The notes below the pieces were generated by a model. The model searched no databases and had not been told where the DNA came from. It was given only the letters and a program-made list of their open reading frames with translations. A DNA stretch of 52,885 bases from a virus (Duplodnaviria; Heunggongvirae; Uroviricota; Caudoviricetes): IMG/VR virus record IMGVR_UViG_2802429241_000010, positions 1 through 52,885 of that record. The stretch is one strand, 5' to 3'. Shown in pieces: positions 13,031 to 14,084 of the stretch. The number at the start of each line of letters is the position of its first letter. Within the stretch, counting starts at the first letter, position 1. Position numbers and translations under genes: made by a program.

Positions 13031-13065
13031 AGCACGTTCTTGCATACGACGTGGCTACGGGTTTC
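13031..13065. repeat. Hairpin-forming repeat, copy 1 (upstream of the GIY-YIG gene)
   Basis: agcacgttcttgcatacgacgtggctacgggtttc; near-identical to 14052–14084; internal dyad gtagcacg/cgtg(g)ctac. Confidence 0.6.
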
Positions 13066-13251
13066 GAGACCGACCCGATCATCAAACGAAACATAAAATT
13101 AGCTCACATTATGAGGAAAGGTATCTTTTTGCGCTATGTAAATTCAAAGGGTTAGCCTCATTTTCCCGATGGCTTTCTCAACACTACTAGTTGTGAGCCC
13201 TTGCAATGTTCATTAATATACGTCTCACAAATAATTCACAGATATTGCAAA

Positions 13252-14025
13252 ATGGATATTACTGAGTTTCCTTCTGGAGTAATTGAACACCTTAGCTGGT
13301 ATGTATACCGATTGATTGATCCTAGGGACGGAAGCACCTTCTATGTAGGGAAAGGCAAAGGTAACCGCGTATTTGCCCATATGCGCGGTGAAGTGGCAGC
13401 GGCTGATGATGACGAGTTACTGAGCAACAAGCTAAAGCAAATCAGAGAAATAAGATTAGCGGGACTTGAAGTTATCCATGTCATCCATCGACATGGAATG
13501 ACTGATGAAAAGACGGCGTACGAAGTTGAAGCAGCACTTATTGATGCCTACCCTGGGTTAACGAATATCATGAATGGTGCTGGCAGCAATGAATTCGGCG
13601 CCGCGCATGTCAAAGAGTTGATAGCAACATATCAACCCGAAACCATAACATTTCATCATAAAGCATTAATGATTTCCGTTAACAGAAGTGCAAAGGATTC
13701 AGAGCTTTATGATGCGGTTCGATTTAGCTGGCGCATTAATGTCTCTCGCGCCAGCCAAGCAGAAGTCATTCTTGCTACTGTAAGGGGGATCGTTCGAGGG
13801 GTTTTCATTGCTGATAAATGGCTCAAATCAACACGTGAAAATTTCCCTACGATGAAATACTGGGACGAGGATCCTGACTTTGAGGCAACACAAAGTTCTC
13901 GCTATGGTTTTGAAGGTCGAGAAGCCCCACCTGAAATAGCAAATCTTTATCTTGGAAAAAAAATACCAGATGAATTAAGAAAAAAAGGAGCTATGTCCCC
14001 GGTCCGTTACTCACCTAATTTTTGA
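13252..14025 (+). CDS. GIY-YIG nuclease-domain protein with unknown C-terminal domain
   Basis: 257 aa from the MDIT start; N-terminal [23 protein letters not shown] resembles the GIY-YIG motif. Confidence 0.65.
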
Positions 14026-14051
14026 GTCTTTAAGTGATAAGCATAAACCGC

Positions 14052-14084
14052 AGCACGATCTTGCATACGACGTGCTACGGTTTC
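14052..14084. repeat. Hairpin-forming repeat, copy 2 (between the GIY-YIG gene and the invertase 3' end)
   Basis: agcacgatcttgcatacgacgtgctacggtttc; sits between convergent genes, so may act as a bidirectional terminator. Confidence 0.6.

Follow-up and report, generated by a model that had tools for sequence, protein, structure and literature searches.

Introduction

Lambdoid phages carry morons, a concept of Juhala, Hendrix and colleagues, which are autonomous units of promoter, gene and terminator inserted between conserved phage genes. The stretch of DNA considered here, a Caudoviricetes record of 52,885 nucleotides (IMG/VR record IMGVR_UViG_2802429241_000010; its whole length is hereafter called the window), holds a prophage with a unit of comparable appearance: a gene for a 257-residue protein enclosed by two direct copies of a hairpin-forming sequence, which we call H (copies H1 and H2). 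A first-pass annotation, made from the letters of the sequence, had noticed this bracketing and offered among its explanations a homing-type insertion and a pair of terminator hairpins. Judged by its sequence, the gene is the already known and characterised defence nuclease PD-T4-3/CMoRE, and the whole is probably a defence cassette of the moron type, with conserved hairpins resembling terminators as its boundaries, that was built by recombination between prophages.

PD-T4-3 was described as a defence system by Vassallo et al. 2022 (PMC9519451) and has been found to act on T-even phages in an isolate from nature (bioRxiv 10.1101/2024.12.20.629700). It is identical with CMoRE, a single-protein type IV restriction endonuclease for DNA containing 5-hydroxymethylcytosine (5hmC) or glucosyl-5-hydroxymethylcytosine (ghmC), whose C-terminal domain is the sensor of the modified cytosine (PMC12923530, Nat Commun 2026); T-even phages are restricted through cleavage of their 5hmC/ghmC DNA (PMC12923530; bioRxiv 10.1101/2024.12.20.629700). 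In the literature that we searched on PD-T4-3/CMoRE, no description of flanking hairpins or of an attachment-site (att) remnant was found.

Like a moron, the unit in the window consists of one accessory gene, accompanied by an upstream region of its own and by a hairpin on either side. It lies where the late operon ends, its G+C is lower than in most of the tail region, it is present in some close relatives and absent from others, and the defence function of PD-T4-3 benefits the lysogen; on these grounds it behaves as a moron. It differs in that the flanking hairpins are homologous copies of one recurrent lambdoid element, an exchange point, and in that the promoter is a presumed one. The b region of lambda is a close structural counterpart: it has the same hairpin and, to the left of it, the same conserved non-coding element (LE), and the parts follow in an identical order and orientation: a single cargo gene, read leftward, stands between two H copies, the second of which lies against the last late gene. 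There the order is ea31, LE–H1, ea47, H2, tfa, and in the window it is kinase, LE–H1, PD-T4-3, H2, pinE, so that the two layouts differ in cargo (ea47 in lambda) and in the last late gene (tfa in lambda), as well as in the pairing of lambda H2, which is kept through a change from C–G to A–U. The e14 element of K-12 offers a looser parallel, with mcrA, a modification-dependent type IV restriction gene, in the slot immediately downstream of pinE; however, mcrA encodes an unrelated HNH protein, lies on the pinE strand and has no H hairpin (MG1655 1209685–1211179).

The gene between the hairpins

The PD-T4-3/CMoRE gene occupies positions 13252–14025 on the plus strand, its identity resting on PADLOC, PDB and Pfam matches and its function on the published work (PMC12923530). 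Residues 1–256 of the protein align with positions 1–255 of the 256 in the PADLOC profile for PD-T4-3 (PDLC04031, E 2.5e-140). Two PDB entries match it over residues 1–257, namely 9U75, the crystallised E. coli O157:H7 protein, to which it is nearly identical (E 7e-172), and 9U7U (E 8e-150); this likeness over the full length leaves no difference from the described system at the protein level. The resemblance of the N-terminus to a GIY-YIG nuclease, suspected in the first-pass annotation, is borne out by a Pfam match to the LEM-3-like GIY-YIG domain PF22945 at residues 28–110 (E 2.4e-14), and the motif begins YVYRL in the translation. The Pfam search finds no other domain in the protein.

A GIY-YIG fold, together with a presence/absence polymorphism at a single site, could suggest a homing-type endonuclease which inserted itself at a hairpin and duplicated its target. 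Against this stand the near-identity to CMoRE, a restriction enzyme for 5hmC and ghmC with a C-terminal modification sensor, and the lack in the Pfam search of a second, DNA-binding module of the NUMOD or IENR1 type. Moreover, the same gene is found with three different left junctions, the variants of each hairpin copy are linked to their flanks, duplication of the target is not a product of homing, and none of 50,697 phage records contains a match to the cassette. The identification of the protein as the restriction enzyme PD-T4-3/CMoRE makes a homing-type insertion untenable, and we regard this option of the first-pass annotation as close to refuted, with a probability that is very small indeed.

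The repeated hairpin

Copy 1 of the repeat, CGTAGCACGTTCTTGCATACGACGTGGCTACGGGTTTC, spans 13028–13065 and copy 2, CGCAGCACGATCTTGCATACGACGTG-CTACGG-TTTC, spans 14049–14084; they are direct repeats at a spacing of 1021 nt. Over the extent originally compared, the two copies differ by one substitution and two 1-nt indels, which agrees with the three differences counted before, and a comparison widened 3 nt leftward adds one further substitution. Both contain the 16-mer TCTTGCATACGACGTG, which occurs exactly twice in the window, and a 29-mer of the repeat had no match in 100 shuffles of the sequence. A covariance model of H, built from 50 distinct variants, scores H1 at 67.9 bits and H2 at 56.6 bits, the next-best site in the 52,885 bases reaching 12.5 bits; according to this model the window contains two copies of H and no more. 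Both fold better than shuffled sequence (z −2.9 to −4.9). Alignment, shuffles, folding and the covariance model thus confirm that a pair of palindromic repeats in direct orientation flanks the gene.

H1 (13025–13062, no strand assigned) is contiguous with LE; its stem has 13 bp and one bulged G, and its loop, TCTTGCATACG, has 11 nt. H2 (14046–14082, likewise without assigned strand) lies between the convergent genes PD-T4-3 and pinE, beginning 20 nt past the stop codon of the former and directly abutting the stop codon of the latter. Copy 2 of the repeat, whose overlap with the invertase stop the first-pass annotation had noted, ends at the pinE stop codon (14083–14085, minus strand). The predicted fold of H2 has −23.9 kcal/mol on the minus strand and −17.4 kcal/mol on the plus strand, because one stem position is G·U on the former and C·A on the latter. 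Copy 2 is a hybrid, its left arm being CCGCAG and its right arm CTACGG, and hence the C·A mismatch.

A widespread lambdoid element

The sequence to the left of H1 is itself conserved. LE (12871–13024, plus strand) has matches in E. coli and phage genomes, does not keep a reading frame and stands invariably left of H; it comprises a core of ~70 nt (12957–13024) and a ‘190-type’ extension (12871–12956). A query of 226 nt, which combines copy 1 with the sequence on its left, matches at 15,073 places; these are spread over 5386 of 5426 complete E. coli genomes (median 3 per genome). It also matches 191 phage records, lambda included, and an exact-pattern scan with the hairpin core finds at least 119 IMG/VR viral contigs. 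When 139 instances of H were oriented and their flanks clustered, the left flank proved to be LE almost always and the right flank fell into 33 unrelated clusters. The LE lengths are nested: the ~70-nt core comes directly after the dinI stop codon, or after the lambda sib/tI region, or after a further extension of ~90 nt, which is present in the window and in lambda. In K-12, H is found in the Qin prophage at its ydfJ end, upstream of ynfT–ydfK (MG1655 1632521–1632574), and in the Rac prophage upstream of ynaM–ynaE (MG1655 1434722–1434775). The repeats are therefore not specific to the cassette gene: H is a widespread motif of lambdoid prophages which borders many unrelated genes, ea47 of lambda among them, and such a finding is what the first-pass annotation had named as speaking against a cassette specific to this gene.

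Lambda has a second, more diverged copy of H between the stop codons of ea47 and tfa, detected by the covariance model at 41.5 bits. Its two copies lie at about 24153–24206 and 22564–22617 of NC_001416 and, as is the case for LE, are unannotated in lambda records; a viral contig in which LE–H stands directly against the 3′ end of tfa (L016) represents the empty counterpart of the lambda layout. Other loci show further cargo in the same kind of frame. One has the order LE–H, restriction enzyme, methylase, partial H, PD-T4-3, H, pinE; another has dinI–H, a Clp-fold protease of the SDH family, LE–H; in a third, LE–H, PD-T4-3 and H are followed by an acyltransferase gene instead of pinE. The restriction–modification pair, a type II restriction enzyme and a cytosine methyltransferase, is seen between LE–H and PD-T4-3 in O103-type prophages at ssrA (L092, 5600–9900; L008), and its right edge falls within the partial hairpin copy. 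As the same layout bounded by H recurs with lambda ea47, restriction–modification and protease cargo, H could serve as a practical landmark for accessory and defence cargo in lambdoid prophages.

Several other identities for the element were considered and rejected. A palindrome of the REP, BIME or ERIC type does not agree with a median of 3 places per genome, all of those examined being in prophage accessory regions, nor with two places in the window. A coding reading fails for both candidate frames, a 58-residue open reading frame (ORF) on the plus strand (12920–13096) and a small one on the minus strand starting from an ATG in the loop, neither of which is conserved among lambda, the window and other loci. 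The 87-nt ‘capsid protein’ pseudogene of RefSeq/PGAP, at ~12959–13045 on the minus strand (corresponding to 8360–8446 of locus L001), also starts at the ATG in the H1 loop; since its frame is interrupted and not conserved, the annotation looks spurious. The ‘lit’ RNA of lambda was dropped as a known counterpart: it is an RNA of the immunity region, not of the b region, and the literature search on it was empty. Neither LE nor H belongs to an Rfam family, the one match, to the terminal hairpin of CssrB, being below threshold, and a collection of literature on ea47/ea31 terminators, ynfT/ydfK and lambdoid defence hotspots, itself incomplete, gave no description of LE–H. Unrelated to the hairpin, the Rfam family IS009 matches inside tfaQ of Qin (220.9 bits; L003, 5879–6077, minus strand).

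Gain and loss of the cassette

The cassette alone (13066–14048) is found in 821 genomes at a coverage of at least 80%, and the full arrangement of the window in 99. The first-pass annotation had proposed comparing related prophages for an empty site with a single copy of the repeat, and such a site exists: LE, one hairpin and pinE follow each other in 169 genomes. With 169 empty and 99 filled sites, the gene is a presence/absence cassette, as had been proposed. The single H in the empty site of strain FCI48 combines the left arm of copy 1 with the right arm of copy 2, which fits an ancestral state as well as loss of the cassette by recombination between H1 and H2. The 5′ region of the cassette (13066–13251, plus strand) travels with the gene in every context, its 186 nt being invariant in the window and in the O157, O103 and Combat11I9 contexts. 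The promoter of the gene is presumed to lie within this region, possibly as TTGTGA-17-TAATAT near 13192–13220, a weak sigma-70-like match read by eye and absent from the list of a consensus promoter scan, whose sites were no more numerous than in shuffled sequence.

The arms of the hairpin record how the cassette was joined. The variant of H1 (GTCGTAGC...GCTACGG) is common to LE-linked copies elsewhere, and almost all copies with an LE-type left flank have GCACGTTC. The variant of H2, GCACGATC, is carried by 19 of the 27 H copies that follow PD-T4-3, the remainder being two other forms linked to PD-T4-3; it was seen in just two copies with an LE-type left flank, and it accompanies PD-T4-3 even in O157-type loci without H1. 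Next to pinE, the right arm is CTACGGT in 52 of 57 copies regardless of the left arm. Each arm thus goes with the flank on its own side, which places the exchanges inside H. Since the variants of each copy are inherited with its own flank, the repeats were not produced by the insertion; a target-site duplication is ruled out by this linkage and by the lack of a transposase in the cassette, and a transposon falls on the same two grounds.

The left end of the cassette is of a different nature. Positions 13058–13081 (minus strand), which overlap H1 in its 3′ arm and tail, correspond in reverse complement to the anticodon arm of tRNA-Ser(CGA) and to an adjacent part on the D side, and we regard them as a remnant of an attachment site. 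Alignment to a serU sequence identified the fragment, and a 97% match to annotated tRNA-Ser loci validated it; ARAGORN detects no tRNA in or beside the cassette. In O157-type genomes the cassette abuts a perfect 62-nt 3′ part of tRNA-Ser together with a chromosomal flank, and the sequence beyond these 62 nt matches, at 97%, the flank of an annotated tRNA-Ser gene in 5423 genomes. The genuine junction of tRNA-Ser and cassette is present in 431 genomes, and from it we conclude that a prophage at tRNA-Ser once carried PD-T4-3 as its terminal, att-proximal gene. H1 has taken the place of the 3′ part of the tRNA gene in the window. Here the join falls within a 10-nt near-identity, CT[G/C]CGGTTTT, shared at the anticodon stem-loop by the tRNA (CTCCGGTTTT) and by H in its 3′ arm and tail (CTGCGGTTTT); the SDH-protease cargo has a junction of the same kind. 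Either a microhomology-mediated event, or the use of the H tail by an integrase as a secondary site with a subsequent deletion between duplicated pinE/tail genes, would fit this join. The junction in the window was rejected as an intact attP, the reciprocal junction of H with the 5′ part of tRNA-Ser occurring in 0 of 5426 genomes.

A separate observation concerns O157 Xuzhou21 (L006, 303–312 kb), where a prophage remnant away from the tRNA-Ser gene has ~66 nt of tRNA-Ser chromosomal flank together with the tRNA 3′ part and adjoins an AraC-family gene and an integrase disrupted by IS1203. The tRNA-Ser flank at a locus other than tRNA-Ser implies that chromosomal DNA was transferred at some earlier time together with the end of the prophage.

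What kind of process would assemble such a unit? We propose that the terminal segment of a tRNA-Ser prophage, consisting of the att remnant, PD-T4-3, H and pinE, was joined to a prophage at thrW with the order LE–H–pinE. The exchange on the right would have used ordinary homology in H, pinE and the tail genes, and the join on the left the 10-nt near-identity of the anticodon arm of tRNA-Ser to H in its 3′ arm and tail. Once formed, a cassette flanked by H may be gained, lost or moved through homologous exchange within H. The order and the enzymology of these joining events we infer from the junctions.

A more specialised alternative would make H a dedicated recombination site, at which cassettes of cargo plus H are inserted and excised by a structure- or site-specific enzyme in the manner of attC or IS200/IS605, building arrays of H, cargo and H. 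It would account for the different cargoes between direct copies of H, including the array of H, restriction–modification pair, partial H, PD-T4-3 and H, for the conservation of the hairpin with its almost fixed loop, for the retention of exactly one H at empty sites and for exchange points inside H. H is also reminiscent of the attC sites of integrons, which are imperfect palindromes that fold into hairpins, come one per cassette in direct orientation and allow arrays. However, H is shorter than attC and has no R″–L″/L′–R′ cores, the RYYYAAC...GTTRRRY motifs being absent from it, and the loci contain no integron integrase (IntI) or HUH transposase, their only recombinases being the Pin invertase and phage integrases; an integron cassette is thus rejected. 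The left end of the cassette is a remnant of att and tRNA-Ser rather than a clean boundary of H, the O157-type copies consist of cargo with a single H, and plain homologous recombination over 40–55 bp would likewise exchange arms together with their flanks. The junctions point to homologous and att-associated recombination, and we consider a dedicated site quite unlikely.

Hairpin function

The stem of H is conserved as a structure. Across the 50 distinct variants, 95.7% of the stem cells pair, and compensatory double changes occur in 4 of the 13 pairs (31 cells), a level reached by 0 of 500 shuffles, with pairing abolished when the partners are slid against each other; the inner stem and loop were fixed by the search pattern, and the outer stem alone is informative for covariation. 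G·U pairs number 36 cells on the plus strand of the window versus 12 on the minus strand, an excess of about threefold. A published Term-seq data set places ‘orphan’ RNA 3′ ends at MG1655 1632571 and 1632574 on the plus strand (Adams et al., eLife 2021, Supplementary file 1), and the flanking sequence printed with these ends is the Qin hairpin. Both lie among the last nucleotides of the match to our repeat (1632521–1632574), just past the stem, on the strand equivalent to the plus strand of the window. Further ends lie ~170–180 nt downstream, at 1632744 (plus strand) in Qin and at 1434540 and 1434552 (minus strand) in Rac, and suggest an unannotated leader or small RNA. On the minus strand, H resembles the 3′-terminal stem-loop of CssrB, a Shigella small RNA (sRNA) of ~180 nt by Northern blot (Rfam RF02799). 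The terminal hairpin of CssrB is the same hairpin read on that strand; the match covers the last ~30 positions of the model at 32.4 and 36.6 bits versus a gathering threshold of 76, and the body of CssrB is absent here.

The G+C-rich stem of H (12–13 bp), its folding (z −2.9 to −4.9) and its compensatory changes agree with a terminator. The tails vary: UUU follows H1, UUUCAUUUAU follows H2 on the plus strand and UUUAUGCUUAUC on the minus strand, UUUUUC follows the Qin hairpin, and there is none at lambda H1. H is best read as a terminator-type hairpin that forms RNA 3′ ends and is usable in both directions between convergent units, and not as a textbook intrinsic terminator. The idea of a pair of terminator hairpins, one of the options of the first-pass annotation, fits the stem covariation and the 3′ end at the Qin homologue; the published 3′-end mapping has plus-strand ends just past the Qin hairpin and none listed at the Rac hairpin.

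At the boundary between the late genes for tail fibres and invertase and the oppositely transcribed genes of the b region, H would thus act at the RNA level as a 3′-end-forming stem-loop. H1 may shield PD-T4-3 from transcription coming out of LE, and H2 would end the PD-T4-3 transcript and, on the opposite strand, the convergent transcript of pinE. Termination at H1 and H2 themselves we infer from their homologues.

A moron-type cassette with terminator-like boundaries, moved by exchange between prophages, remains in our judgement the probable explanation, and a number of points weigh against it. The 3′-end evidence comes from a homologue in K-12 Qin and not from this prophage; for the Rac copy no 3′ end is listed, and the transcripts there end ~170–180 nt further on, which means substantial read-through. 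The loop of 11–13 nt, versus 3–8 nt for an intrinsic terminator, is unusual for a simple terminator, as is its nearly invariant sequence, an invariance that is partly one of ascertainment, because the search pattern fixed the loop. The U-tract after H1 in the window is a mere UUU, lambda H1 is without any, and a consensus terminator scan called neither copy. Co-inherited arms could explain part of the covariation, and the history of the left junction is derived from a handful of junction types.

The evidence on H also bears on LE. RNAalifold predicts helices in LE that are rich in G·U on the plus strand, and it is conceivable that LE and H together form an unannotated regulatory sRNA of ~100–190 nt (plus strand) with H as its terminator, in which case H2 would be a detached terminator copy and the bracketing incidental. 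This would agree with the conservation of LE–H as a block, variable sequence beginning right after H, with the lack of a conserved reading frame in LE, with the ‘orphan’ 3′ end at the Qin hairpin outside any annotated gene, and with the G·U pairs in the predicted LE helices and the H stem, which are workable on the plus strand only. On the other side, no convincing conserved promoter was found within or upstream of LE, Rfam has no such family, and the LE core, which starts right behind the stop codon of dinI or the sib/tI region of lambda, fits a module of 3′ untranslated region (3′-UTR) and terminator. We consider a regulatory sRNA of this kind unlikely, if somewhat less so than a dedicated recombination site; it is compatible with the reading of H as a 3′-end-forming hairpin.

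A broader proposition, less likely than not, is that LE–H is a functional, unannotated lambdoid RNA element, present in lambda itself and in K-12 Qin, a structured RNA of ~100–190 nt or a 3′-UTR module, whose hairpin doubles as a preferred exchange point where defence and other accessory cassettes are stacked and swapped. If this were true, the b region would be organised as cassettes delimited by H, with the H tail as a secondary site for integrases of the tRNA-Ser type. LE–H, at which K-12 has an orphan RNA 3′ end, is a concrete candidate for a phage RNA element that has been overlooked, and it is this unit that may deserve experimental follow-up. The bracketing itself is a case of ordinary mosaicism among phages, not of a homing cassette that moves by itself, and current views of such mosaicism are not overturned. 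It shows a defence gene in its natural setting, where movement between prophages relies on a short conserved hairpin and an att remnant rather than on the nuclease that the gene encodes.

Prophage setting

The prophage, of ~41.7 kb, is integrated at thrW, the tRNA-Thr(cgt) gene at 51441–51516 (minus strand), and both of its ends are marked by a direct repeat of 48 nt from the 3′ part of thrW, at 9691–9738 and 51439–51486. Its baseplate, tail-fibre and pinE genes are e14/SfV-like. With these ends and tail genes placed, the accessory region, which separates the attachment site from the tail-fibre/invertase genes, extends from 9.7 to 14.1 kb and is the counterpart of the lambda b region. Its G+C of 34–45% (cassette ~44%, the kinase and LE stretch 34–40%) is below that of most of the tail region, which reaches 61% at 16.2–17.8 kb.

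A gene for a Ser/Thr protein kinase of 478 residues and of the PD-T4-6/MAD6 kind (11185–12621, minus strand; Pfam Pkinase E 3e-21, PADLOC mad6 2e-25 and PD-T4-6 2e-24) also belongs to the accessory region, but lies outside the bracketed unit. It adjoins a 205-residue ORF without assigned function (10211–10828, minus strand), and this pair is another variable cargo unit, since just 2 of the 30 best E. coli matches extend to it.

On the tail-fibre side, the gene at the H2 boundary is pinE (14083–14637, minus strand), a serine invertase gene recognised by Pfam Resolvase (PF00239, E 8.9e-52) and HTH_7 (PF02796) domains and by RefSeq homologues named pinE; it shares its direction of transcription with the tail genes. 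Near it, a 20-nt inverted repeat with 95% complementarity, AAACGTTGGTTTGGGAGAAG at 14699–14718 and CTTCTCCCAAACCAAGGTTT at 16541–16560, is separated by 1822 nt; the two repeats probably serve as crossover sites for the inversion of a tail-fibre segment with alternative fibre and assembly genes.

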